From positions 5,886,675 to 5,950,674 of the forward strand of contig OZ242214.1 in assembly GCA_965206595.1 (NCBI GenBank): DNA of 64,000 bases, in the 5' to 3' direction. Position numbers and translations under genes: made by a program. The notes under the pieces are model-generated. The model had not been told where the DNA came from, did no database searches, and worked only from the letters and a program-made list of their open reading frames with translations. Positions 3,300 through 42,769 of this stretch are shown piece after piece (position 1 is the first letter of the stretch; every line of letters begins with the position of its first letter). Origin of the DNA: Candidatus Latescibacterota bacterium (GTDB lineage Bacteria; Latescibacterota; UBA2968; UBA8231).

Positions 3300-4439
3300 C
3301 GATATGAACCCCCCATCCTTCTCCGACCTCCTCGCCTGTGGCCATTTCGACAAGCAGCCCTGTGAGCATTTTTCCATGGAGAACGACCTTGATGACGGGA
3401 CCTGGGCGCGGTTCAGCGGACGCGCCAAGATCCCGGAGGCGATGGATAGGGTAGAGTGGCCCTCCGAAACCTCGGCCTGATCGACGCGCAAGACCGCATG
3501 ACCCACGCCGGGGCATGGCTTGTTGCACGAGACATTCGGACGTTCACGACCAGTGCCCACGTGTCCTGTGCCCTGTTCATGGGCACCGAGAAGGTCAGGA
3601 TTCTCGACCGGCGGAACTTCCACAGCGACATCCCGGCGATGATTGACGAGGTAGTGGCCTGGATTCTCACCAAAATCAATGTCGAATTCATCATCAGGCA
3701 CGTGAGGCGGGAGGAACGGCCGGAATTGCCCGAAGAAGCCCTTCGGGAAGCGGTGGTGAATGCCGTTGCACACCGCGACTACCGCTCGACCGCAAACGTC
3801 CGGATTTACGTCTTCAAGGATCGGATCGAAATCGTCAGTCCAGGCGGGTTGCCCGAAGGGATGGGGGAAGCGGATCTGGGCACCAAGAGCGTCCCCCGCA
3901 ATCCGCTGCTGTTCGGCATGTTGTACCGAATGGATGTGGTGGAGCAGATCGGTTCCGGCATTCGGCGCATTCGGGAGCAATGTCGAGAGCACGGGGTGGC
4001 GGAGCCGGTGATCGAGGTGTCCGAGCACTGGGTTACCACAACCTTCAGGCGCCCGGTCGCAGACGTCGGGAGCAAGTCGGGGGCAAGTGGGGACCAGGTC
4101 GACAACGCCATATCTGACAATACGTTACAATATTCGGGGAACCCTCCCGGGGATTCGACCTTACAAGTGGAGGACCAGATCGGAACCAAGCAAGCACTAA
4201 GTAGGCACCAAGTTGGAATTCTCCGTAACTCCTTGAACGAGCAGGCAATTACGGAGTTGATGGTACTGGCGGGGAAAAAAGATCGCACCAAGTTCAGGAA
4301 CCAAGTGCTCAGGCCCCTGCTGGAGGAGGGGTTGCTGGAGATGACCGTCCCCGACAAGCCCCGAAGCAGCAAGCAGAAGTACCGGGTGACGGCACGGGGC
4401 AGGGACCTGTTGGCGGAGTTGGACAGAAAGCCGGATTGA
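3300..4439 (+). pseudogene. 5'-truncated and frameshifted copy of the AlbA_2/HATPase_c_4 (RecG-C-terminal-like) gene
   Basis: ORFs 3289..3480 and 3456..4439 together align to residues ~115-488 of the full copy at 5565..7031 (…VNAVAHRDYRSTANV…VEQIGSGIRRIREQC…); N-terminal AlbA_2 domain absent; C-terminal wHTH tail differs and is AT-richer. Confidence 0.6.
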
Positions 4440-4667: not shown

Positions 4668-5442
4668 TGCAACAGGTTGCAGCACAATTGAACGAGGCGC
4701 CCCCATACCGGATCACCCCCGAGATCCTGTCCCTGGTGGAGCGGATCGGCGAGGGCATCGGGTGGGCGGAGGCTTCCGGCGTCGCGCAGGATCTGCGGCT
4801 GCGGCGTATCAACCGCATCCGCACGATACAGGGATCGCTGGCGATCGAGGGGAACACCCTGACCGAGGGACAGATATCAACGCTGCTGGATGGCAAACCG
4901 GTTGCCGGACCCCTGCGGGAAATCCGGGAAGCTCGCAACGCCATCAAGGCGTGCGACGTGTACGAGGCGTGGGATCCGGCAAACGAGGCCGACCTCCTTG
5001 AGGCGCACCGCATCCTGATGGCCGGCCTGCTGGACAGGCCGGGGAGTTACCGCCGCGGCGGGGTTATGGTCGGAGGACCTGGAGGGGTCCATCACGTCGG
5101 CCCGCCGCCGGCGCGGGTGCCGGAGCAGATGGGGAGGCTGCTGGAGTGGGTGGGAAGTGCCGGAGAGCATCCGCTGATTTCCAGTTCGGTCTTTCTCATT
5201 ACGAGTTCGAGTTCATCCATCCCTTCGAGGACGGCAACGGCCGCATGGGTCGGCTATGGCAGACGCTGATCCTGACGCGCTGGCGGGACCTGTTCGCTCA
5301 TCTTCCGGTGGAGAGCCTCGTTCACGCCCGTCAGAGCGCTTACTATGCCGCCATCCGCGAGAGCTCGGCCGCGGGGGAGAGCACGCCCTTCATCGTATTC
5401 ATGCTGGAAATCATCCGGCTTGCCGTTACGGAGCAGACCTGA
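4667..5442 (+). pseudogene. Fic/Doc family protein (AMPylator-type), interrupted by a frameshift near 5200
   Basis: ORF 4667..5269 (frame 2) continues as ORF 5146..5442 (frame 1), which holds the Fic motif HPFEDGNGRMGR; frameshift in a T/C-rich stretch. Confidence 0.7.
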
Positions 5443-5469
5443 GCGGGGATGTGAACTTTGCCGGGAGCT

Positions 5470-5555
5470 CTGCTGGAGATTACCGTCCCGGACAGCAGCT
5501 GAAGTACCGAGTGACGGCAAGAGACAGGGACCTGTTGGCGGCGTTGGACAGATGA
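5470..5555 (+). pseudogene. 3'-terminal remnant of an AlbA_2/HATPase_c_4 gene
   Basis: …QQLKYRVTARDRDLLAALDR* matches the C-terminus of the copy at 3300..4439 (…KQKYRVTARGRDLLAELDRKPD). Confidence 0.5.
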
Positions 5556-5564
5556 GTACCCGTT

Positions 5565-7031
5565 ATGAATGAAACCCTCCTCAGCCTGATCACCCTCGGC
5601 GAAGGCTTCACAACGGAGTTCAAGCGCTCTTTCCCCTCCGACCTGGGCACCGAAATCTGCGCCTTCGCGAATTCCACGGGCGGCGTAATTCTGCTCGGCG
5701 TGACGAACGAAGGGGAGACCGTAGGCATTGGGAACCACAACAAGCTGAAATCGCAGGTCCAGTCTACCGCGCGTTCGGCGGAGCCACCGATTGCGGTCGA
5801 AGTGGAATCCGCCGGCGACGTGCTCTGCGTGACCGTGCCCGAACAGCACGGGAAGCCCTATTCCTTCGGCGGAAGGTTCTACATCCGCGAAGGGGCCAAT
5901 TCTCAGCAGATGTCCCGCGACGAAATCCGGGAGTTCTTCTACAAGGAAGGACTCATTCGCTTCGACGAGACGCCTTGCCAGCGCTTCGATCTCCAACGCG
6001 ATCTGACGCCGGAAGCGTGGTCTCGATTCGCCGGGCGGGCTCGAATTCCTGACGGCATGGAGCCGCTGACGGCGCTGGAAAACCTGCATCTTGTCGTTGA
6101 TGGAAAGATGACCCACGCCGGAGCGTGGCTGCTGGCGGACGATATCACCCGGTACAGCTTGCAGGCAGGGGTGACCTGCGCCCTGCTGCGGGGGGTGACC
6201 AAGACGCACATTCTCGATCTCAAGAACTTCACCGGCGATCTCTACTCGATCTACGAGGATTGTGTGGCCTACGCACAGGCCAAACTGAACACGGCGCTGA
6301 TGCCGCACGTTCGCGGCAGGGATGAGCGTCTGGAGCTGCCCGAGGACGCGATTCGCGAAGTATTGGTGAACGCCATCGCGCACCGGGACTATCGATCTAC
6401 CGCCAACGTGCAGATGTACGTGTTCCACGACCGGTTGGAAATCGTGACGCCGGGCGGGTTGCCCGCAGGAATGCGCGAAGAGGATCTGGGCGTCAAGAGC
6501 GTGCCGCGGAACCGGTTGCTGTTCGGGATGTTTCACCGCATGGGGATGGTGGAGCAGATCGGCAGCGGAATCAGGCGCATTCGACAGGAGTGCCGCGACT
6601 ACGGGGTGGCGGAACCGGTGATCGAGGTATCCGAGCACTGGGTGACCATGACCTTTCAAAGGCCGTCCGCACAAATCGGTGAGCAAGTCACGGCGCATGT
6701 CAGGGACCGAGTCCATGCAGGGCCAGAGTCAGGGCCAGAGTCAGGGCCAGAGTCAGGGCCAGAGTCAGGGCCAGAGTCAGGGCCAGAGTCAGGGCCAGAG
6801 TCACTGGAACTGCGCGTCCTGGCGCTGCTGATCGAAGAACCTCTTTCGAGATCCGCCATAGCTGATGGTTTGGGACACCAATCCGTGTCGGCCGGCCTCA
6901 ACAGAGTGATCCGCAACCTGGTGCGTGACAGGCGTATTGCGTACACGGTCCCGGACAAGCCGGGCAGCAGGCTTCAGAAGTACCGGATTACGCCAGCCGG
7001 GAGATCGGCGCTCGAAGAGCCAGCCAAGTGA
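5565..7031 (+). CDS. AlbA_2 (divergent AAA-4) + HATPase_c_4 + C-terminal wHTH protein (RecG C-terminal-like / Schlafen-like putative DNA-binding ATPase), 488 aa
   Basis: N-terminal …TEFKRSF…GGVILLGV… (AlbA_2-like); central …VNAIAHRDYRSTANVQMYVF…MVEQIGSGIRRIRQEC… (HATPase_c_4-like); stops 22 nt before hsdM. Confidence 0.7.
   Translation: MNETLLSLITLGEGFTTEFKRSFPSDLGTEICAFANSTGGVILLGVTNEGETVGIGNHNKLKSQVQSTARSAEPPIAVEVESAGDVLCVTVPEQHGKPYSFGGRFYIREGANSQQMSRDEIREFFYKEGLIRFDETPCQRFDLQRDLTPEAWSRFAGRARIPDGMEPLTALENLHLVVDGKMTHAGAWLLADDITRYSLQAGVTCALLRGVTKTHILDLKNFTGDLYSIYEDCVAYAQAKLNTALMPHVRGRDERLELPEDAIREVLVNAIAHRDYRSTANVQMYVFHDRLEIVTPGGLPAGMREEDLGVKSVPRNRLLFGMFHRMGMVEQIGSGIRRIRQECRDYGVAEPVIEVSEHWVTMTFQRPSAQIGEQVTAHVRDRVHAGPESGPESGPESGPESGPESGPESGPESLELRVLALLIEEPLSRSAIADGLGHQSVSAGLNRVIRNLVRDRRIAYTVPDKPGSRLQKYRITPAGRSALEEPAK
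6721..6804 (+). repeat. In-frame 12-bp tandem repeat (ggccagagtcag x7) encoding (GPES)7
   Basis: Seen directly; perfect copies, last unit ends in c; lies in the linker before the C-terminal wHTH of the 5565..7031 protein. Confidence 0.95.
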
Positions 7032-7053: not shown

Positions 7054-9169
7054 ATGTCCCAACTCGAACATATCGACGCCATCGAGAAGCGCCTCTGGGA
7101 AGCGGCGGACACGCTGCGGGCAAACTCCCCATACGCCAGCAACGAGTACTTCCTGCCGGTCATGGGCCTGGTGTTTCTGCGCCACGCCTACAGCCGCTAC
7201 CTGGCGGTCAAGGACAAAGTCGAAGCCAGCCTGCCGACCCGGGGCGGCAGGAAACGGGCGCCGACCAAGGAGGACTATTCCCGGCAGAGCGCCATCTTCC
7301 TGCGCCCCGAGGCCCAATTCGACAATCTGGTTGGCCTGCCGGACGGAGAGGACCGCGCCAAGGCCGTCATCGCGGCGATGGACTCCATCGAGGAGGATTA
7401 CCACAGCCTGCGCGGCGCCCTTCCCAAGGCCGAGTACCAGGAGCTGGACAACGACGTGCTCGGCCAGCTCCTGCGCACGCTCAACCCCGACCAGCTGAAG
7501 CAGGTCTCGGGCGACGTTTTCGGACGCATCTACGAGTATTTCCTGACCAAGTTTGCGGATTTGAAAGCCCACGACGACGGCGAGTTCTTCACCCCCGTGT
7601 CGCTGGTCTCGCTGATCGCTCATGTGCTCGACCCCGACCGCGGCACCGTGCTCGACCCGGCCTGCGGTTCCGGCGGCATGTTCGTGCAGAGCGCCCGCAC
7701 CGTGGAGGAGCACGGCAGCAGCCCTGCCGAGCGGCTTACCTTCCGCGGCCTGGAGAAGAACGCCACCACCATCCGCATCGCCCGGATGAACCTCGCCGTC
7801 CACGGCCTCGAGGGGGACATCCGGCAGGCGATCACCTACTACGAGGATCCGCATCAAATGGTGGGAAAGGCCGACTACGTGATGGCCAATCCTCCCTTCA
7901 ACGTCGACGAGATCGACGCCGACAAGGTGGAGACCGACCCGCGCCTGCCGTTCGGCCTGCCGGGAGTCAACAAGAAGGAGAAGGTCTCGAACGGCAACTA
8001 CGTCTGGATCAGCTACTTCTACAGCTACCTGAACGAGAAGGGGCGGGCCGGCTTCGTCATGTCGTCGCAGGCATCCAGCGCCGGCGGGACCGAGGCGCAG
8101 GTGCGGCGGAAGCTGATCGAGTCCGGCGACGTCGACGTGATGATCGCGGTGCGCTCCAACTTCTTCTACACCCGCACCGTGCCCTGCGAGTTGTGGTTCC
8201 TCAACCGCAACAAGCCCGGGGAGTTTCGCGACAAGGTGCTGATGATCGACGCCCGCGATGTCTATCGAAAGGTCACCCGCAAGATCTACGACTTCAGCCC
8301 CGAGCAGGAGCAGAACCTGCTGGCCATCGTCTGGCTCTACCGGGGCGAAACGGAGCGCTATCTCGATCTCGTCTCCCAGTACCTGTGGGACGTTGCCGAG
8401 AATGGAAGGGCCTGTTACGAAGGGATGAGCGTAAACGGCAGGACCTGCCGGCCGCTGCCGGAGTTCATGGAAGCCGTCGCCGCGCTCCGGGAGGACCTGT
8501 CCCCGTTCCTGAAGACCCGGCCGAGGATCGGCCCGCACGCCGAAATCTTCGCCGAGCTGGCGAAGGAGCAGAAGCAGTTCGGAGGCATCCTCAGGAGGTT
8601 CCAGGCTCGGGCCGCCAAGGCGCAGGAACAGTGGGAGCGGGCTCCCGGCACCAGCGCCGGATTGAACAAGCTGGTGGAGCGGTTCGCACCGGCTGGCTGA
8701 GAGCAGCCGCGACCTCGCCGGGCAGTCCGACCAGCTCTACAAGCTCGCCAACCGCCTGATCGAGACCTGCGAGCAGGAGGAGGACGCGAAGGCGAGCGAC
8801 GCCTGGAACGGCCGCGGTATTACCCGGGCCAGGAAAGCGGTCGACGATGCCCGCCGGCAGGCCATCGAGCAGCTCGAACAGGTGCACTACTTCCACCGGC
8901 AGGCGCGCTGGCTCACGGAGCGCTTCCCCGAGGGAGAGTTGCGCGACGTGGAAGGGCTGGTCAAGCTGGTGGACCGCGCCGAGATCGAGGCCAACGACTG
9001 GAGCCTGACTCCGGGCCGCTACGTCGGCGTCGCCCCCGAGGAGGAGGAGGAAGGGTTCGACTTCAAGGAAGCACTTCGAGAGATCCACCTTGAGCTGGAG
9101 GACCTCAACGCCGAGGCAGTGGTGCTGGCGGAGAAGATCAGAAAGAACTTCGAGGAGCTGGGGGTATGA
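7054..9169 (+). pseudogene. hsdM: Type I restriction-modification N6-adenine methyltransferase HsdM, interrupted by a 4-bp tandem duplication (GGCT)2 at 8691-8698
   Basis: MSQLEHIDAIEKRLWEAADTLR… N-terminus and NPPF motif (VMANPPFN); frame 1 stops at 8700; C-terminal ~168 codons (…DWSLTPGRYVGV…) continue open in the +1 frame from 8666 to 9169; deleting one GGCT unit restores one 704-aa ORF. Confidence 0.8.
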
Positions 9170-9235
9170 AGAAGCGAACCAATCTGCGGCCGGGGGGTTT
9201 CGGCGCGGCACACTGGCACTGCCGCCATAAGAAAC

Positions 9236-9492
9236 AGGCTGTTGCACAATTGAACGAGGCACCCCAATACCGGATCACCCCCCAGATACGGTCCCTGGTG
9301 GATCGGATCGGGGAGGGCATAGGGCGGGGCGAAGGCTTCCGGCGTTGCGCAGGACCTGCGGGTTCGGTGTATCAACCGCCCACCAGAGCGCGAACTCTTC
9401 CGCCGACCGGGAGAGCTCGGCGGAAGAGTTCGGCCTTTATCGTATTCATGCTGGAGATCAACCCGTTTGCGGTGCCGGGGGATCAGACATGA
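9236..9492 (+). pseudogene. Fic/Doc gene remnant (5' ~50 codons joined to 3' ~20 codons, internal deletion)
   Basis: ORF 9166..9492: …QAVAQLNEAPQYRITPQIRSLVDRIGEGIG… plus …FIVFMLEI… match the N- and C-termini of the Fic gene at 4667..5442. Confidence 0.6.
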
Positions 9493-9628
9493 GGGACAGC
9501 TACTGCGGGGACTTTCTCACCATCTGTCGAAACGACCTTGGAAAGAGCGCATTTACAGTTGATGGATGTGTGCGAGGGGTCATATTGATGACCGTACGCA
9601 TCCTATGGGGTCCAACGGAGTTTGATCG

Positions 9629-10774
9629 ATGAAATGGACACCTCGAACTCTTGATGAACTTGGCTACGTTAGCCGGGGCAGGTCTCGGCACAGGCCAAGG
9701 GATGCCGCCCACCTTTACGGCGGCCCTTACCCTTTCATCCAGACAGGGGATATAAAACACGCAAGTCTCTATGTAAATAGTTACTCGCAGACCTACACGG
9801 AGGCCGGACTTGCCCAGAGTCGTCTCTGGAAAGCGGGAACACTATGCATAACGATTGCCGCAAATATTGCGGACACGGCGATTCTCGCCATTGATGCCTG
9901 CTTTCCAGACAGCGTTATCGGCTTCATCCCCGACAATGAGAAAGCCGATGCCCGTTTTCTCAAATACCTGTTTGATGCGACGATTCAGAAACGAATCAAG
10001 CAGTTCACTCAAGGCGCCACGCAGGACAACCTTAGCCAAACCAAGCTCCTGTCACTCCAATTCCCCATTCCAGACGTGGCGGAACAACTCCGTATTGCCG
10101 ACCTCCTGTCAGCCTACGACGACTTGATGGAGAAGAACCGGCGCCGGATTCAGTTGCTGGAGCACGCTGCGCGACTGCTCTACAAGGAGTGGTTTGTCCA
10201 TCTTCGCTTCCCTGGAAATGAGAACGTCAAGATCAAGGACGGTGTGCCGGAGGGATGGGAGAGGAAGACGTTGGGCGATTTAGTAGAGGTGACAAAGGGA
10301 AGGAACATTACCAAAAATTCAGCTAAGGATGGCTCTGTGCCCGTTGTTGCTGGGGGCTTATCTCCAGCCTATTATCACGATACGGCCAATGCGGTTGGAC
10401 CAGCCATCACTATTAGTGCATCTGGAGCCAACGCCGGATACGTGAACCTCTACTACGAGGACATTTGGGCATCTGACTGCTCTTATATCAGTACTACATC
10501 AACGGATCGTCTGTATTACCTTTACTTACTCCTCAAGTCGAAACAGAGGGAGATCTTGGGATTCCAGAAGGGCGCAGCACAGCCTCACGTTTACCCAAAG
10601 GACTTGAAAAGGTTGCCGTTGTTGGCTCCAAAGAATATCGTCGTGAATATGTTTGAAGAATCAGTAGTGGCAGACAATTTTCATCAAAAGGTCTTGGTCG
10701 AACAAAACAAACTACTGGTGCAAGCCCGAGACCTGCTTCTGCCGCGTTTGATGAGTAGAAAGGTGGCGGTATGA
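9629..10774 (+). CDS. hsdS: Type I R-M specificity subunit HsdS (two target-recognition domains)
   Basis: 381 aa; conserved central and C-terminal HsdS helices (…LAEQLRIADLLSAYDDLMEKNRRRIQLLE…, …LVEQNKLLVQARDLLLPRLMS…); GC drops to ~50%. Confidence 0.85.
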   Translation: MKWTPRTLDELGYVSRGRSRHRPRDAAHLYGGPYPFIQTGDIKHASLYVNSYSQTYTEAGLAQSRLWKAGTLCITIAANIADTAILAIDACFPDSVIGFIPDNEKADARFLKYLFDATIQKRIKQFTQGATQDNLSQTKLLSLQFPIPDVAEQLRIADLLSAYDDLMEKNRRRIQLLEHAARLLYKEWFVHLRFPGNENVKIKDGVPEGWERKTLGDLVEVTKGRNITKNSAKDGSVPVVAGGLSPAYYHDTANAVGPAITISASGANAGYVNLYYEDIWASDCSYISTTSTDRLYYLYLLLKSKQREILGFQKGAAQPHVYPKDLKRLPLLAPKNIVVNMFEESVVADNFHQKVLVEQNKLLVQARDLLLPRLMSRKVAV

Positions 10775-11544
10775 GCGTATCCTACCCAACCAAACTTCGC
10801 CTAGCTTATCGAAGCGGGGACAGATGCGCCCTTCCCGGTTGTGGGCAGCAATTATCGCCAACGGGCGAAGGCGGCATTCCTAGCAATGTGGGAGAGTACG
10901 CACATATCGCCGGAGAACATAGCGGTAGAGTACGGGGCCATCGGTCCGCTCGCTACGATCCAAATATGACTGAAGAGGAGAGGAACGGCTACCACAACCT
11001 GATTTATTTATGTGCGAACTGCCACAGAAGAATAGACGCTATTCCACAGGGAGAACCAGACTATCCTGTGGAACGTCTCCAGGAGATCAAAGCCGAGCAT
11101 GAGCTAAGGGTTAGCGAGGCAATGGCTGAGGCATTCGCAGATGTCGGCTTCCCTGAACTAGAAGAAGCCACTCTATGGATCATGCAACTTATTCCTCAAC
11201 AACCGGATAGTGACTTCACGGTAATTGCACCCGAAGACAAACTAAAGAAGAACGAATTAGGAAACGCCTCTCGAAATATCATCACAATGGGCCTCAGTGT
11301 TTCGCGGGAGGTTCGAGCATTTATTGAAAATACAGCACAGGAAGATCATAATTTTCCAGAACGTCTGAAGTCAGGATTTCTTGAGGAGTACTACCGACTG
11401 AAGAAAGAGGGGCATTCAGGGGATGATCTTTTCGACTTGATGTGTCGATTTGCACAAAGAGGCTTCACAGAGGAAACAAAGAGGTCTGCTGGGAAGGCAG
11501 TGATGATTTACCTATTTGAGACTTGTGAGGTGTTTGAGAAATGA
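10771..11544 (+). CDS. HNH-nuclease effector protein (N-terminal HNH, C-terminal alpha-helical domain), 257 aa
   Basis: HNH motif C-x2-C … H … N … C-x2-CH (…CALPGCGQ…EYAHIAGEH…NLIYLCANCHRRID…); start overlaps the hsdS stop (ATGA); AT-rich. Confidence 0.7.
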   Translation: MSVSYPTKLRLAYRSGDRCALPGCGQQLSPTGEGGIPSNVGEYAHIAGEHSGRVRGHRSARYDPNMTEEERNGYHNLIYLCANCHRRIDAIPQGEPDYPVERLQEIKAEHELRVSEAMAEAFADVGFPELEEATLWIMQLIPQQPDSDFTVIAPEDKLKKNELGNASRNIITMGLSVSREVRAFIENTAQEDHNFPERLKSGFLEEYYRLKKEGHSGDDLFDLMCRFAQRGFTEETKRSAGKAVMIYLFETCEVFEK

Positions 11545-11768
11545 TTCTTCCGTCGAAGCACATTTCCCAAGACCAATCACTGATCGGCGTCGGTGCTATT
11601 CTACTAAAGAAGATTGGTAGGCCCCAGACCGTAACCAGCCTTTGGGAGACCGTCCGCGAGGAAGATGCGATAGGTACGTTTGAACGGTTTGTACTAGCGC
11701 TTGACATGCTTCACATCGCCGGAGCTGTAGCCTTGGAAAATGGCCTGATCGTAAAGGTGAAAAAATGA
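11541..11768 (+). CDS. Small helical protein (75 aa), candidate 'middle component'
   Basis: ATGA overlaps with both neighbours; no recognisable motif. Confidence 0.5.
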   Translation: MILPSKHISQDQSLIGVGAILLKKIGRPQTVTSLWETVREEDAIGTFERFVLALDMLHIAGAVALENGLIVKVKK

Positions 11769-13525
11769 TCCATAGTATTACCGCTAACCACTCCTCATTC
11801 AATCCCGTCGAATTCACGTCGGGCTTGAACGTGATCTTAGCAGATCGCACTGAAACTTCGACACAAAAAGACACACGAAATGGTCTTGGTAAGTCTACAC
11901 TAATTGAAATTATCCACTTCTGCCTAGGCTCCAACGTTCAAAAAGGTCAAGGGCTTTCAATAGAGCCACTACGGGATTGGGAGTTCACCTTGGAGATTAC
12001 ACTCGCGGGTAACCGTGTGAAAGTAACTCGCGCCGTTGCTAGATCTAATATTTTTGTCATAGATGGCACGACGACTGGTTGGATTGATCAACCTGATTGT
12101 GAGGATATGTTTGGAAAGAAACCAATCAGATTAAAATTGGATCAATGGAGGGCACTCTTGGGGAGGGCACTATTTGGGTTATCGCCATCTGACGAACCCC
12201 ATAGTTACACGCCGTCTTTTCGGAGTCTGCTTTCTTATTTTATAAGATTGGGGAATGACGCTTATGATGATCCCTTCCGAAATACGCGACAGCAGCAACC
12301 GTGGAACGTTCAGCTCCATGTCGGATTTCTTCTTGGCTTGAACTGGGAGAACGCGGCGAGATGGCAGGAGCTTAAGGACCAGGAGAAAGGCGTGAAGGCA
12401 TTTAGTCAAGCAATCAAGTCTGGTGTCACGGAATATGCACGGGGTTCGGTTGGCGAATTGGAGGCTGAGCGTGTTCAGTTGGAAAGTCAATTAGAGCAGG
12501 AGTCCCATGCACTACAAAATTTCAAGGTTCACCCTCAATATGAGTCTATTCAGCAAGAAGCGGACCGGGCCACAGCGATCATTCACAACTTAACTAATGA
12601 TAACGTCGTTGGTCGCAGACGATTGGCACGCTATAGGGAATCTGTTGCAGCGGAAAAGCCCCCATCGGATACCGCAATCGATGAACTGTATAAGGAGGCA
12701 GGCGTTGTTTTTTTTGAAGCGACTCGTCGCACTCTAACGGAAGCGAAGGAATTTCATTCTAAGATCGTGGAGAACAGGCGAGCTTTCCTTGAGATGGAAA
12801 TCGTACGCTTGGAACGACAAATTGAGAATAGAAACAATGACATCAGAAAATGGACCGACACCAGGGCTACTTCGCTGGAAATCCTAAGAACACATGGTGC
12901 TCTACAAGAGCTGACCAAGCTACAAGAGCGCCATGCAGGTACGCGAGAAAGACTGGAAAGTACACGTACGCGAATTTCAGAAATTAGGAATTTGACGGCG
13001 CAGAAGCGTAAGGTTCTAGTTGAGAAGACCGAACTAGCTCAGATTACCGAGCGGGATCACGAGCAACGCCGAGACGTTTGGAACACTCCAGTACGTTTCT
13101 TCAACGACAATTCTCAAGCTTTATACCAAACACCTGGACACTTGGTGATTGACATCGGTAGAGCCGGTTTCAAATACGATGTCGAGATAAACAGGAGCGG
13201 CAGTGAAGGCGTCAATAAGATGAAAATATTTTGCTTCGATTTGATGCTCGTGCAGCTCACGCCGATACGGAACAATCCAATTGATTTTCTGATTCATGAC
13301 AGTGGTCTTTACGATGGCGTTGACTCTAGGCAGCGGGCCCTTGCGCTTGAGCGCGCATGTGAAGTGTCCGAGGCAACCGATACACAATATATTTGCACAC
13401 TTAATTCTGATATGGTTCCGCGAGATGACTTCAGTCCCGGATTTTACTTCGATAAATATGTCAGACTGACGCTTACTGACAAGAATCCCTCCGGCAGTCT
13501 TCTTGGCTTTCAGTTCGAGATGTAA
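11765..13525 (+). CDS. ABC/SMC-like ATPase with a central coiled coil (586 aa)
   Basis: N-terminal Walker A NGLGKSTLIEII; ~200-aa coiled-coil insert; C-terminal signature-like SGSEG, Walker B IDFLIHDSG and D-loop LYDGVD, as in Rad50/SMC/ABC-3C-type ATPases. Confidence 0.75.
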   Translation: MIHSITANHSSFNPVEFTSGLNVILADRTETSTQKDTRNGLGKSTLIEIIHFCLGSNVQKGQGLSIEPLRDWEFTLEITLAGNRVKVTRAVARSNIFVIDGTTTGWIDQPDCEDMFGKKPIRLKLDQWRALLGRALFGLSPSDEPHSYTPSFRSLLSYFIRLGNDAYDDPFRNTRQQQPWNVQLHVGFLLGLNWENAARWQELKDQEKGVKAFSQAIKSGVTEYARGSVGELEAERVQLESQLEQESHALQNFKVHPQYESIQQEADRATAIIHNLTNDNVVGRRRLARYRESVAAEKPPSDTAIDELYKEAGVVFFEATRRTLTEAKEFHSKIVENRRAFLEMEIVRLERQIENRNNDIRKWTDTRATSLEILRTHGALQELTKLQERHAGTRERLESTRTRISEIRNLTAQKRKVLVEKTELAQITERDHEQRRDVWNTPVRFFNDNSQALYQTPGHLVIDIGRAGFKYDVEINRSGSEGVNKMKIFCFDLMLVQLTPIRNNPIDFLIHDSGLYDGVDSRQRALALERACEVSEATDTQYICTLNSDMVPRDDFSPGFYFDKYVRLTLTDKNPSGSLLGFQFEM

Positions 13526-13665: not shown

Positions 13666-14562
13666 GTGAACATACGCGAGTACCACCAACTCCAGGCGGA
13701 ACGGACCACCCTGGATGATTTGCTCGAGCGGCTACCCCCGGAAAATGTGATCGAACGAACCGGTCTGGAATTCCGGAAGAAGGAGGTGGATGAAGCACTC
13801 GCTTCGCGTCCGGAGCCCTCCAGAAACCCCACCCGGGTGTGTCTGACCTTTCGCGGAAAACCCATCGCAGGATCCCATGGGATTTTCGCGGATTTCGGGG
13901 CGGAGGCCGTTCAGGCATTTACGAATATGGTTGCCACCATGGGCGCCAGCCAACATGCACCGCTCGGGTCGCGTGGTGCGATACCCAACCGTGAGGAGTA
14001 CCGCCTGCTGATTACCGGCACGGCATCAGGATCGTTCGGTTTCGAGCTGGAAGAGGCCAGGTATGACCTCTTTCCCGAATCTTCTCCGGTCGAGTCCGCA
14101 ATTGTCCAAACAATGACAATTCTTGAGGCTACGGTTGGAGCAGACGAAGTATTGGCGAATGCCGTTTCCGAAGCCGACCCGCGAGCGCTTGAGGCGCTGC
14201 GTGGGTTCTTGGAAACGATGGCGGATCAAGACGCGGTGTGCACGGTTGAATTCAACGACGATGTTTTCCGGTTTGTGGACGTTGGCCAGGTCCGACGAAG
14301 CGAAAGCCGCCTGAGTCCGGAGAACATTCATGAAGAAGTGCGGGAAATCACAGGGCGCATTATTGGGGTATTGCCCTTCCGTCGTACGTTCGAATTTCTG
14401 GAAGATGAAACAGGAGAATTGATCTCGGGCCGGATCGATCGCGCTATCGAAGATGCTGCGGAAATTGATCAGTTTCTCAACAGATCCTTGAAGATCCGCG
14501 TGGATTCCAAACAGGTAGGAACAGCAAGGCCTCGTTACGTCCTTTTGGAATACGACATATAA
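13666..14562 (+). CDS. Hypothetical acidic protein (298 aa), no recognisable domain
   Basis: GTG start 8 nt after AGGAGG; lies between the ATPase gene and hsdR; intermediate GC (~57%). Confidence 0.55.
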   Translation: MNIREYHQLQAERTTLDDLLERLPPENVIERTGLEFRKKEVDEALASRPEPSRNPTRVCLTFRGKPIAGSHGIFADFGAEAVQAFTNMVATMGASQHAPLGSRGAIPNREEYRLLITGTASGSFGFELEEARYDLFPESSPVESAIVQTMTILEATVGADEVLANAVSEADPRALEALRGFLETMADQDAVCTVEFNDDVFRFVDVGQVRRSESRLSPENIHEEVREITGRIIGVLPFRRTFEFLEDETGELISGRIDRAIEDAAEIDQFLNRSLKIRVDSKQVGTARPRYVLLEYDI

Positions 14563-14598: not shown

Positions 14599-17500
14599 AT
14601 GACCCCGACTCCCTATACCGAGGACAGCCTCGTCCAGCAGACCACCGCCAACTACCTGGAGCAACGCCTGGGCTGGGAGTCAATCTACGCCTACAACCAC
14701 GAGGACTCCGGTCCCGGCAGCCTGCTCGGCCGCGCCTCCGGCCGCGAGGTAGTGCTGGAGCGGACGCTTCGCGCGAACCTCGCGGAGCTGAATCCGGGCC
14801 TGCCCGCATCCGCATACGACGACGCGGTGCGGCAGATCACCGCTGTCTCCGCCTCCCAGACCCTCGTCGCCGCCAACCGTGAGAAGTACAAGCTGGTACG
14901 GGACGGCCTGCAGGTGGTCTTCACCAACGACCGGGGCAAGCGGAAGACACGCCTCCTGCGGCTGTTCGACTTCGCCGAGCCGGCCAACAATCATTTCCTG
15001 TGCGTGCGCGAGCTGTGGGTGCAGGGGGATCTCTACCGCCGCCGCGCCGACATCGTCGGCTTCGTCAACGGCCTGCCGTTGCTGTTCATCGAGTGCAAGA
15101 ACATCCACCGCGACCTCAAGGCCGCCTTCGAGGGGAACTACTCCGACTACCGCGACACCATTCCCCACCTCTTCCACCACAACGCAGTGGTGATGTTCGC
15201 CAACGGCGAGAAGGCGAACATCGGCTCCATCACCAGCCGCTGGGAACACTTCTACGAGTGGAAGCGCCTGGCCGAGGAGGAGCCGGGTGTGGTCGACATG
15301 GAGACGCTGCTCAAGGGGGTCTGCGACAAGCGCAACTTCATGGACTTGGTGGAGAACTTCATCCTCTTCGACGATTCGACGGGAGAGACGCGGAAGATTC
15401 TGGCCCGCAACCACCAGTTCCTCGGCGTGAACCGGGCCGTCGAGGCGGTGCGCGACCGCGAGAAGCGGCAGGGCCGGCTCGGCGTCTTCTGGCATACCCA
15501 GGGAGCGGGCAAGAGCTACTCGATGGTGATGTTCACCCGCAAGGTTCATCGCAAGCTGGGGGGCAACTTCACCTTCCTGGTGCTGACCGACCGGGACGAT
15601 CTCGACCGCCAGATCTACAAGACCTTCGCCGGCTGCGGCGTGGTGGATCACGATCGCGACCCCTGCCGGGCCGCGGACGGAAAGCACCTCGGCCGGTTGA
15701 TGGCCGAGCACAAGTCCCACGTCTTCTCGCTGATCCAGAAGTTCAACCTGGACCCGGGCGCCGGCTACACGATGCGCGGGGACATCATAGTCATCAGCGA
15801 CGAGGCGCACCGCACCCAGTACGGCACCCTGGCGCTCAACATGCGCAACGCCCTGCCAAACGCCGGCTACATCGGCTTTACGGGCACGCCGCTGTTCACC
15901 GAAGATGAGATCACCCGTCGCGTCTTCGGCGAGTACGTCTCGACCTACGACTTCCAGCGCGCGGTGGAGGACGAGGCCACGGTGCCGCTCTACTACGACG
16001 CCCGCGGCGACAAGCTGGGCGTTGCCATCGGCGACCTGAACGAGCGCATCGCCGACAAGCTGGATGAGTTCGACATCGAGGACGTCGACGTGGAGCAGCG
16101 CCTGGAGCAAGACCTGAAGCGGGACTATCACGTCGTCACCGCGGGCAGGCGTCTCGACCAGGTAGCGCGGGACTTCGTGCAGCACTATTCCGCGGCCTGG
16201 GAGACCGGAAAGGCGATCCTGGTCTGTATCGACAAGATCACCTGCGTGCGCATGCATGGGCTGATCGAGCGCTATTGGAACGAGCGCATCGAGGAACTGG
16301 AGGAGGAGAAGAAGTGGACTGACGACGAGCAGGAGGAGATTTATCTCCAGCGGCAGATCGAGTGGACGCGGGAGACCCGCATGGCCGTGGTGGTGAGCGA
16401 GGATCAGGGGGAGGTGGCGAAGTTCCGCAAGTGGGAGCTGGACATCACCCCGCACCGGAAGCTCATCAAGAATGGTATGGAACTGCCCGAGTCGATGCGC
16501 CGCAAGCCGCAGTTCCGCCGCAAGCAGCGGATGGCGGTCGACGAAGCCTTCAAGGCGGAGGAGCATCCGTTTCGCATCGCCATCGTTTGCGCCATGTGGC
16601 TGACCGGTTTCGACGTGCCGAGCCTTTCCACGCTCTACCTCGACAAACCGCTCAAAGCCCACACCCTTATGCAGGCCATCGCCCGCGCAAACCGGGTCAA
16701 CGAGGGCAAGAACAACGGCCTGATCGTCGACTACTGCGGCATCCTCAGGCACCTGCGCAAGGCCCTGGCGACCTTTGCCGGTACCGCCGACGGAGGAGGA
16801 GGTGGTGGCGGTCCCGGTCAAGAGATTGATCCTGTGCAACCGGGAAAGGAGCTGCTCGCTGGCCTCGCCGAAGCGATTGCCATGGTGCGCGCTTTCCTCG
16901 AAGAACGCCGTGCGCCGCTCGACGATGTCATCCATAAGACCGGCTTCGAGCGCAACGCCGCCATCGTGGCCTGCAAGGAAGCGGCCAACGAGAACGACGA
17001 GACCCGCAAGCGCTTCGAAGTGATCTGCCGCGAGGTTTTCAGGAAGTTCAAGGCCTGCATCAACCTGCGGGGCGTCAACGCCTACCGGGGGGATCGCGCC
17101 GCCATCGACGCCGTCTACCGGAGCCTCCAGCAGGACCGCGAGCAGGCCGACATCACCGACATCATCCGCGCCCTGCACGGAGTGGTGGACGAGGCCATCG
17201 ACCTGCGGCAGGAACGCACTAGGGATAGTCATCGGGATCCGTTGGACATCAGCCGGATCGACTTCGACCGGCTCAAGCGGGAGTTCGAGGGCAGCCCCGC
17301 CAAGCGGACGACAGTGCAGTCCCTCAAGGAGGCAGTGGAGGAGAGGCTCCGGCGCCTTTTGGCCCGCAACCCGCTACGGACCGACTTCCAAAGACATTTC
17401 GAGGAGATAGTCAGAGAGTACAACCGGGAGAAGGAGCGGGTGACCATCGAGCATACCTTCGAGGCATTGCTCAACCTCGTGAAGGAGCTGGATGAGGAGG

Positions 17501-17853
17501 AAAAGCGGGCCTTGAACATGGGATTGAACGAGGAATCGCTGGCGATCTACGATCTTCTGCAGAAACCGGATCTCGGGGCGCGTGACATCAACCGCATCAA
17601 AATGGTCTCCATTGAGCTGCTGCGAACGTTGAAAGAGGGGAAGCTCCGCGTCGAACAATGGCGCGAAAAGGAGGCGACCCGGGCCGCGGTCAAGGGAGAG
17701 ATCCAGGACTTCCTGTGGAGCGACGTAACCGGGCTGCCGCCCGACAGCTACACGGATGACGATGTGCAGGTGAGGGTGGACGGCGTTTTCGGCCACGTAT
17801 ACCGGGCCTACCCTACGGTGCCATCACCTTTCTACATGAGCGACGCCGCGTGA
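14599..17853 (+). CDS. hsdR: Type I R-M restriction subunit HsdR (helicase/nuclease), ~1084 aa
   Basis: N-terminal …EDSLVQQTTANYLEQRLGWES…; DEAH box (IVISDEAHRTQYG); helicase motifs; start placed at the internal Met. Confidence 0.9.
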   Translation: MTPTPYTEDSLVQQTTANYLEQRLGWESIYAYNHEDSGPGSLLGRASGREVVLERTLRANLAELNPGLPASAYDDAVRQITAVSASQTLVAANREKYKLVRDGLQVVFTNDRGKRKTRLLRLFDFAEPANNHFLCVRELWVQGDLYRRRADIVGFVNGLPLLFIECKNIHRDLKAAFEGNYSDYRDTIPHLFHHNAVVMFANGEKANIGSITSRWEHFYEWKRLAEEEPGVVDMETLLKGVCDKRNFMDLVENFILFDDSTGETRKILARNHQFLGVNRAVEAVRDREKRQGRLGVFWHTQGAGKSYSMVMFTRKVHRKLGGNFTFLVLTDRDDLDRQIYKTFAGCGVVDHDRDPCRAADGKHLGRLMAEHKSHVFSLIQKFNLDPGAGYTMRGDIIVISDEAHRTQYGTLALNMRNALPNAGYIGFTGTPLFTEDEITRRVFGEYVSTYDFQRAVEDEATVPLYYDARGDKLGVAIGDLNERIADKLDEFDIEDVDVEQRLEQDLKRDYHVVTAGRRLDQVARDFVQHYSAAWETGKAILVCIDKITCVRMHGLIERYWNERIEELEEEKKWTDDEQEEIYLQRQIEWTRETRMAVVVSEDQGEVAKFRKWELDITPHRKLIKNGMELPESMRRKPQFRRKQRMAVDEAFKAEEHPFRIAIVCAMWLTGFDVPSLSTLYLDKPLKAHTLMQAIARANRVNEGKNNGLIVDYCGILRHLRKALATFAGTADGGGGGGGPGQEIDPVQPGKELLAGLAEAIAMVRAFLEERRAPLDDVIHKTGFERNAAIVACKEAANENDETRKRFEVICREVFRKFKACINLRGVNAYRGDRAAIDAVYRSLQQDREQADITDIIRALHGVVDEAIDLRQERTRDSHRDPLDISRIDFDRLKREFEGSPAKRTTVQSLKEAVEERLRRLLARNPLRTDFQRHFEEIVREYNREKERVTIEHTFEALLNLVKELDEEEKRALNMGLNEESLAIYDLLQKPDLGARDINRIKMVSIELLRTLKEGKLRVEQWREKEATRAAVKGEIQDFLWSDVTGLPPDSYTDDDVQVRVDGVFGHVYRAYPTVPSPFYMSDAA

Positions 17854-33928: not shown

Positions 33929-34549
33929 ATGCCGAGAATTGAGGTCATCCCGGTGGAGCGCGCGACCGGCGCGCTCAAGACCGAGTACGACAAGGCGATC
34001 GGCCGCGCCGGGCGGGTGTGGAACATCGTCGGCGTCATGAGCTGCAATCCCGCGGTCCTGCGGGATTCGATCAAACTCTACGGCAGCGTGATGCACGGGC
34101 CGTCGCCGCTGACCCGCAGGCAGCGGGAGATGCTGGCCGTCGTCGTCTCGGCGCGCAATCACTGTGTCTACTGAACCCGCTCCCACGCCCACGATCTCCG
34201 GGAAGAGATCGCAGCGTCCGATGACATGAGCGCCGCCGAAGCGGACGCCTTCGTTCACGCGATTGCGCGCGACTGGCGAAGCGCCGGGCTCGGCACGCAG
34301 GATCGCGAGCTGTGCGGGTTCGCCGAGCGCCTCACCGACGATTCGGAAGGGGTGGACGATGGGGGCATAGCCGCCCTGCGCCGCTGCGGCCTCGACGACC
34401 GCGCCATCCACGATGCGACGCAGGTAGTGGCGTATTTCAACTACATCAACCGCGTCGCCTCCGCCCTCGGGGTGGAGCAGGAGACCTTCGCGCGCGCCTG
34501 GGAGCAGGCGGATGCCGGGAGCGGCTCGGACGGAGAGGGAAGCGCGTGA
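33929..34549 (+). CDS. AhpD-like (carboxymuconolactone decarboxylase family) protein, predicted selenoprotein with Sec at codon 82 (in-frame TGA 34172-34174)
   Basis: ORFs 33929..34174 and 34226..34549 share one frame, separated only by a TGA. That TGA sits at the second Cys of the AhpD motif E-x11-C-x2-C-x3-H (here E…CVY[TGA]TRSH). A 7-bp stem-loop lies 17 nt downstream. Confidence 0.7.
34192..34211 (+). promoter_or_regulatory. Candidate bacterial SECIS hairpin (stem cgatctc / gagatcg, loop CGGGAA)
   Basis: Seen directly; starts 17 nt after the in-frame UGA. Confidence 0.5.
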
Positions 34550-41596: not shown

Positions 41597-42769
41597 CTAG
41601 TGTCATGTCGTGTAATTAACTGTACAAACAATTGAAAGTGCCGTAGGTTTCCCTTATCCCCCTTCTGAAAGGAGAGACCTATGGTGACGGGGCGTCCATT
41701 AACGCCGTTAGAGCTGAGTCCGTCGGACCGGGAACGACTGGAATCGATGGCCAAATCACGAAGTCTTCCCCACGGATTGGTGCGGCGAGCCGAGATGGTG
41801 CTGCTGGCCGCCGATGGCTGGCCCAATGAAGCGGTCGCTTCCGCGGTGGGTGTGACGCGAGCTACGGTGGGCAAATGGCGCCGGCGTTTTCTCGACAACG
41901 GACTCAATGGCTTGTATGATGAACTACGTTCAGGGGCGCCGCGATCGATCACGGACGAGCAGGTAGCCGAGGTGGTATACAAGACCCTGAAGACCAAGCC
42001 CAAAGACGAAACACAGTGGTCGGTGCGCTCCATGGGCGAAGAAACCGGCCTGACCAAGGACGCGGTTCATCGCATTTGGCGCACGTATGGTTTGCAGCCC
42101 CATCGACACAAGCGCTTCAAGCTTTCCACCGATCCTTTCTTTGTCGACAAAGTACGGGATATCGTCGGCTTGTACCTGAATCCCCCCGAGCACGCCTTGG
42201 TGCTGTGCGTGGACGAGAAGAGCCAGATCCAGGCGTTGGAACGAAGTCAGCCCATGCTGCCCCTGGGACTGGGATACGTGGAAGGGATTACGCACGACTA
42301 CAAGCGGCACGGCACCACCACCCTGTTTGCCGCCCTGGACATCGCCACCGGGGAAGTGATGACCCAGTGCAAGCCCCGTCATCGTCACCAGGAGTTCCTC
42401 CAGTTCCTGCGCCACATCGAGGCCAACGTGCCCGCTGACCTCGATATTCATCTCGTCGTCGACAACTACGCCACGCATAAGCATGCCAAGGTCAAGCGAT
42501 GGCTGGCACGGCGTCCCCGATTTCACCTTCACTACACTCCCACGTATGCTTCGTGGCTCAATCAGGTGGAGATCTGGTTCAATATCCTCACCCGCCAGGC
42601 GGTTCGGCGCGATTCGTTCCGCAAGGTGTCGGAGCTCATCGAGCGAATCGAACGCTACACGGCCAAATGGAACGCCAACGCACACCCTTTCGTCTGGACG
42701 GCTACGGCGGATTCCATCCTCGCCAAAATCAAGAGACTTTGTGAACGAATCTCTGCGACAGGACACTAG
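41597..42769 (+). mobile_element. IS630-family insertion sequence (~1.17 kb)
   Basis: Imperfect terminal inverted repeats ctagtgtcatgtcg / cgacaggacactag; TA at both ends; single DDE transposase; lower GC. Confidence 0.8.
41681..42769 (+). CDS. IS630-family DDE transposase (362 aa)
   Basis: N-terminal HTH plus DDE region (…LVLCVDEKS…, …[11 protein letters not shown]…, …[12 protein letters not shown]…). Confidence 0.85.

Follow-up and report, generated by a model that had tools for sequence, protein, structure and literature searches.

How did the hsdM gene of a Type I restriction-modification locus come to be split, and what would the split mean for the system? The stretch of Latescibacterota DNA analysed here (64,000 nucleotides, hereafter the window) carries, in this order, hsdM, hsdS, an ABC-3C/PDC-M68 cargo, a 298-aa ORF and hsdR; the reading frame of hsdM is closed by a TGA and the remainder of the protein is encoded in another frame. 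The initial annotation explained the break by a 4-bp GGCT tandem duplication. Taken together, the evidence makes it probable that we are dealing with a real and recent frameshift of one G in the hsdM of a natural population, by which the Type I system would be off (r- m-).

Reading frames of hsdM and layout of the locus

Translation of the window sequence gives an hsdM head that begins with an ATG and ends at the TGA (Table 1). Pfam recognises N6_Mtase (PF02384, 8.4e-70) and HsdM_N (PF12161, 4.1e-14) in this head, and its translation shows the DPACGSGG (AdoMet-binding) and ANPPFN (NPPF) motifs. The +1 frame is open over 168 codons from stop to stop (8666-9169); it encodes ...DWSLTPGRYVGV... 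and ends in ...FEELGV. Since the final upstream stop in this frame lies at 8663-8665, the frameshift is confined to 8666-8697. The split is thus where the initial annotation had placed it, and the ~168 codons that it had assigned to the +1 frame correspond to this open stretch, the HsdM tail itself being codons 547-704. The conserved C-terminal element ...VKLVDRAEIEANDWSLTPGRYVGV..., identified in the translation and in an alignment of 40 homologues, is encoded in the tail: it does not lie in the head's reading frame and stands in the +1 frame, behind the TGA. A single PADLOC model, MTase_I PDLC03035 (653 positions), matches the two pieces in order, the head at 2-483 and the 95-aa tail ORF at 561-653, which supports the reading of head and tail as two parts of one HsdM. 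In an exact-protein look-up, no protein identical to the 548-aa head, with any of three possible starts, was on record.

Table 1. Features of the Type I locus in the window
Feature	Position	Strand	Description
hsdM head	7054-8700	+	548 codons plus TGA; HsdM_N and N6_Mtase domains; also part of the family-specific helical insert
GG, one G being the +1 insertion that breaks the frame	8691-8692	+	one base in the relatives intact here
hsdM tail, +1 frame	8693-9169	+	codons 547-704 of the intact protein plus stop
Premature stop TGA	8698-8700	+	created by the frameshift
Residual tail ORF, 95 aa, GTG start	8882-9169	+	longest start-codon-bearing piece of the tail
hsdS	9629-10774	+	intact, 381 aa, two target-recognition domains; Pfam Methylase_S, 2 stretches
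Cargo between hsdS and hsdR	10771-13525	+	candidate system PDC-M68 (PADLOC PDC-M68A and PDC-M68B)
HNH-like effector	10771-11544	+	cargo
MC6 middle component, 75 aa	11541-11768	+	cargo
DUF2326/ABC-3C ATPase	11765-13525	+	cargo
298-aa ORF	13666-14562	+	conserved; directly precedes hsdR in all close relatives
hsdR	14599-17853	+	intact, 1084 aa; Pfam HSDR_N, SWI2_SNF2, T1R_D3-like, T1RH-like_C

DNA for comparison came from L001-L003, the three closest relatives, and from a Latescibacterota MAG (L008), all four of which are intact at the junction and share ~95-96% nucleotide identity with the window. As had been stated initially, hsdS and hsdR are intact, both being full length by Pfam, NCBIfam and PADLOC. 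The hsdS product covers positions 3-397 of the 403 of PADLOC Specificity_I PDLC03068; that of hsdR covers positions 4-669 of 674 in TIGR00348 and 16-998 of 1029 in PADLOC REase_I, and is collinear with the HsdR proteins of L001 and L003. An exact-protein look-up with an alternative 1094-aa, TTG-start hsdR product found no identical protein on record; the 1084-aa product is present in the collection, with no gene record attached to it. The three-gene ABC-3C-type cargo is, from its PADLOC matches, a candidate defence system. The 298-aa ORF has no Pfam, NCBIfam or PADLOC match; L001 and L003 have proteins ~95-96% identical to it at the same position, a further relative (L007, described below) has a 298-aa call there, and the ORF is perhaps an accessory gene of this Type I family that awaits characterisation.

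The content of the defence island varies among strains. In L003 the position of the cargo is taken by SIR2_2 and DUF6932, and between hsdS and hsdR there is an ISL3 transposase in L001 and an IS66 transposase in L002. L008 (CBDCXV010000009.1, about 5015-6590) carries an insertion of ~1.58 kb in the hsdM tail at ~codon 676, with a 481-aa UPF0236-family ORF on the opposite strand; this insertion is probably an IS element. The island thus decays in several ways across strains, through the IS elements of L001 and L002, the insertion in the hsdM tail of L008 and a second frameshift in the window.

This second frameshift is private to the window: an insertion of AG at 3453-3456 (GGGTAGAGTGG, where L001, L002 and L003 read GGGTAGTGG) splits a HATPase_c_4/Fic-like_C gene at 3304-4439 (+). 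Removal of the AG yields 377 aa, the length of the gene call in L007, and the exact-protein look-up found no identical protein for the 327-aa upstream fragment. Either the island has decayed further here or the indel arose in assembly.

Elsewhere in the window, an IS630-like transposase gene with DDE_3 and HTH domains (41681-42769, +) lies amid metabolic genes. An AhpD-like/CMD gene (PF02627; 33929-34549, +) contains an in-frame TGA at 34172-34174, at the second Cys of a CxxC (..NHCVY[TGA]TRSHAHD..), and ~13 nt after this TGA begins a stem-loop with the core GATCTC-CGGGAA-GAGATC (34193-34210), whose fold is not significantly stronger than that of shuffles (z -1.06). Rather than being a nonsense mutation, this TGA probably encodes selenocysteine, the stem-loop serving as a bacterial SECIS element. 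An Rfam search of the window returned no match.

Nature of the lesion

A homologue search with the repaired protein returned thousands of matches, most of them 704 aa long, the closest being 96, 95 and 94% identical. FAPLAES, or a close variant of it, spans the junction in all 40 best homologues aligned. At the DNA level, the sole indel that separates the window from L001, L002, L003 and L008 in the ~2.1 kb compared is an extra G at 8691/8692, where L001-L003 have a single G and L008 a synonymous C. The intact relatives read TTC GCA CCG CTG GCT GAG (with the Leu codon CTT in L003 and the Pro codon CCC in L008) and the window reads TTC GCA CCG GCT GGC TGA, so that CCG CTG GCT has become CCGGCTGGCT. 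Deletion of one G gives a protein of 704 aa, the modal length of the homologues, and regains the FAPLAES reading. Compared with these alleles, the lesion is best described as a one-base insertion, G to GG (CCG CTG to CCG GCT G), and not as a duplication of GGCT.

The duplication had been proposed as a slipped-strand event, which supposes an ancestor reading CCG GCT GAG; the tandem GGCTGGCT is indeed present at 8691-8698, and deletion of one unit reopens the frame. However, the protein repaired in this way has 703 aa, not the ~704 first stated, and it is without the Leu found in all 40 aligned homologues, the Leu codon (CCG/CCC CTG GCT; CTT in L003) being likewise present in the four close DNAs that are intact here. 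The comparison of sister strains for one or two GGCT copies, which the initial annotation had suggested as a check, brought up no single-unit ancestor: a close relative with CACCGGCTGAG would be needed, and none of the relatives has it. In L001 and L002, whose alleles are intact, the tandem GCTGGCTG is already present in frame, and GGCTGGCT appears because the extra G merely shifts a tandem of this type. Four-base tandems also arise by chance, with 273 in the window (one per 234 nt) and nine in hsdM, and the one at the junction is no commoner than chance. Since the intact relatives differ by a one-G indel, since the tandem exists already in L001 and L002 and since such tandems are frequent, we reject the GGCT duplication, which we consider highly improbable.

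The single extra G also changes the way in which the authenticity of the break has to be argued. The initial annotation saw a genuine slipped-strand mutation as opposed to a homopolymer sequencing error; the mutation is probably genuine, as two contigs of other assemblies carry the same allele (see below), but it is not a slipped-strand one. The contrast is in fact reversed, because the lesion is a minimal change in homopolymer length, and evidence from other assemblies therefore matters.

Authenticity, age and possible recurrence of the frameshift

Changes in homopolymer length are the commonest type of long-read error, and here a run of G has become longer by one base. The organism could then have an intact 704-aa hsdM, with the extra G as a consensus error of sequencing or assembly. 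The close relatives, moreover, come from low-coverage long-read-style assemblies (with names such as ctg..._5x_l and _12x_l) that contain several split genes, and the window-private frameshift at 3453-3456 could belong to a background of assembly indel errors. The same extra G is, however, found in two SPAdes-style contigs of other assemblies. L005 (ERZ23495126, sample SAMEA13322671) and L006 (ERZ6104481, NODE_209027, cov 2.3) are both 1082 bp long and collinear with 8284-9365 of the window, with one and no mismatch, respectively, and no indel; both have only ~2x coverage, probably represent one sample assembled twice, and owe their platform assignment to the contig names. Each contains CCGGCTGGCTGAG, including the extra G, and encodes the 95-aa tail ORF, while the upstream gene ends at the equivalent of 8700. 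A third SPAdes-style contig, L004, differs from the window by two mismatches and no indel over 3079 nt (9550-12628), and this short-read contig encodes a protein identical to the window's hsdS product; the SPAdes-style contigs and the window thus never differ by an indel over 4.1 kb. In addition, ~45 other window genes have near full-length Pfam coverage and no split, in a survey that is insensitive to breaks near gene ends and to genes with no family match. A scan of JGI metagenome contigs for three junction alleles gave no matches, and the last 138 residues of the head, used as a protein query, retrieved distant short fragments only, which are uninformative on allele frequency. The recovery of the same extra G in two SPAdes-style contigs makes an artefact of base calling unlikely; we regard the extra-G allele as very probably real, and an error of sequencing or assembly as an unlikely source of it.

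The age of the frameshift was considered by comparing codons after removal of the extra base. For the tail (codons 549-704), dN/dS was 0.10-0.24 between the window and its relatives and 0.12-0.18 between intact pairs; the relaxed selection looked for by this measure was not seen, and the tail has no amino-acid change private to the window with respect to the relatives. Because the tail evolves as in intact alleles and has no private change, the frameshift looks recent relative to the ~3-5% divergence among alleles. From about 8487 onward, synonymous divergence is 3-5 times higher than in the head in all pairs, intact ones included, and the alleles are mosaic in the tail (window 7054-9169 against L001-L003, L007 and L008). 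Decay of a pseudogene was considered as the reason for this higher divergence and rejected, since it is equally seen between intact alleles; the pattern suggests mosaic recombination, frequent in the part that adjoins hsdS.

Of the diverged relatives, the closest is L007 (ERZ25072076, ctg222093_5x_l; a 40-kb contig), with 96.9% hsdM identity; it shares both the cargo and the length of hsdR with the window. Its hsdM, at 8106-10221 of that contig, is also called as 548 + 95 aa with the same TGA. The junction, near 9735-9750, reads TTCGCCACCCCTGGCTGAG, and the insertion is a different one: an extra C (TTCGCCACCCCTGG) located 4 nt upstream of the window's extra G, in what is otherwise the L008-type allele (Pro codon CCC), inside an L008-like tract (8487-9055). 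L007 is a mosaic of window-like and L008-like tracts, and in ~9.9 kb of aligned coding sequence it has no other indel against the window. Its extra C may be an independent second event at nearly the same place, a sign of a local hot spot, or a consensus artefact of two strains collapsed at 5x.

Two different +1 insertions 4 nt apart that lead to the same TGA could point to a hot spot of mutation at this very site, or to truncation being selected for here, and if so, Type I systems of the window's family would be repeatedly switched off with no repeat tract involved; we hold this to be very unlikely. The near-coincident insertion of L007 is the only point that goes beyond the routine, and it may itself be an artefact of a low-coverage consensus, L007 being a 5x mosaic contig in which collapsed strains are possible. 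Recurrent +1 insertions acting as an on-off switch, or a head and a 95-aa tail that work as two polypeptides, also receive little credence from what surrounds the site. There is no repeat tract, the run consists of two Gs and two four-base units, and the intact relatives have no extra base. Among the 80 species-level loci retrieved, none has a tblastn match stopping near codon 546; nearly all match end to end, with L008 and L072 cut near the 3' end only. Local DNA hairpins are no stronger than those of shuffles (z -1.2 to -1.9). Two functional polypeptides would moreover be separated inside a predicted helix, and no promoter-like site precedes the tail ORF, promoter-like and terminator-like sites having been looked for in 8600-9700 with none found. 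A template switch at a hairpin or quasi-palindrome was examined separately as the origin of the insertion and rejected; it would copy an A opposite T, not the inserted G, and the folds (the same z values) are not significant.

Phase-variable Type I systems with simple-sequence repeats in hsdM or hsdS have been surveyed (PMC7383803), and the window resembles them in that a frameshift in a Type I gene would turn the system off. Those loci have long repeat tracts whose unit number varies by strain (PMC7383803), whereas the window is without such a tract: at the frameshift site there is no long homopolymer or multi-unit tract, only GG and two 4-nt units. Nor was variation in the number of repeat units seen among the close strains (L001-L003 and L005-L008), the insertion of L007 being of a different base. 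With both defining features missing, repeat-mediated phase variation was rejected.

A full-length HsdM might still be made if ribosomes shifted to the +1 frame in a programmed manner or if RNA polymerase slipped. The stop follows directly after the shift (GGC TGA G), which is superficially reminiscent of prfB. Frameshifting of the prfB type takes place at a slippery codon with a Shine-Dalgarno-like stimulator ~3 nt upstream. Here, however, the nearest GGAG lies ~15 nt upstream and no Shine-Dalgarno-like element is found at the prfB spacing; there is no slippery codon, as Gly-tRNA on GGC should not be able to re-pair on GCU; and the arrangement is not conserved, with 40 of 40 aligned homologues and the four close relatives in frame at this point. 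For transcriptional slippage, no homopolymer is long enough for RNA polymerase to slip on. Restoration of the full-length protein by either route is extremely improbable, and a one-base frameshift remains our reading of the locus.

Consequence for the Type I system and comparison with known HsdMs

With the extra G in place, the ribosome would read two wrong codons and then stop at the TGA; since the out-of-frame codons GCT GGC precede it, the truncated product ends in ...FAPAG. This product would be an HsdM of 548 residues that keeps the N-terminal and catalytic domains and is without the last ~158 residues, the conserved C-terminal element included, and its chain would break off partway through a long helix belonging to the family-specific helical insert. 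The AlphaFold model of an intact homologue (P0001, 96% identical) shows a set of long helices with pLDDT >90 for residues ~430-630, in a model whose overall pLDDT is 57.9, whose catalytic domain is poor and which is confident only at ~420-640. Because codon 546 falls inside a predicted helix (534-575) within this confident block, the frameshift does not coincide with a domain boundary.

Without the M2S1 core, a Type I system does not restrict. In the solved HsdMs PDB 3khk and 7vru, it is the extreme C-terminus that aligns with residues 625-694 of the intact protein. In EcoKI, the C-terminal region (~residues 470-529) has been modelled against the coiled coil of HsdS, and HsdM from which ~43 C-terminal residues had been removed by proteolysis was folded and showed no binding to M1S1 (PMC2647291). 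Taking into consideration that the missing part includes the C-terminal element and that EcoKI needs this region to bind HsdS, both activities are expected to be lost: the tail-less HsdM would fail to form the M2S1 core with HsdS, and neither methylation nor restriction would take place (r- m-). By analogy with EcoKI, the double loss that the initial annotation had anticipated is thus likely. It is conceivable that the 95-aa GTG-start tail ORF provides the C-terminal element in trans. Because an r- m- state would be harmless to the cell, it could persist while hsdS and hsdR stay intact for a time.

Overall, hsdM is here a pseudogene of an ordinary kind, in a defence island undergoing decay; it would be one more case in which a Type I system is silenced via hsdM, the loss of which is a safe route to silencing because losing the methylase core disables restriction too. 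The correct annotation should be a frameshifted hsdM pseudogene with a one-base lesion, neither two genes nor a repeat-mediated switch.

Compared with known systems, the window's HsdM has the domain order and the AdoMet-binding and NPPF motifs of the solved HsdMs (3khk, 7vru, EcoR124I 7bst and EcoKI 2y7c), and it shares with Type I HsdMs the conserved C-terminal element and an operon with hsdS and hsdR. Unlike the solved proteins, those of the window's family have ~704 aa, and ~200 of these residues form an additional helical insert that separates the catalytic domain from the C-terminal element; the family is distant from EcoKI, to which it aligns over the catalytic core only (E 1e-12). What sets the window copy apart from known HsdMs is its frameshift at codon 546/547. 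Like the truncated EcoKI HsdM, it lacks the C-terminal region through which HsdM makes contact with the coiled coil of HsdS; in the window, however, the loss is genetic and larger, ~158 residues against ~43.
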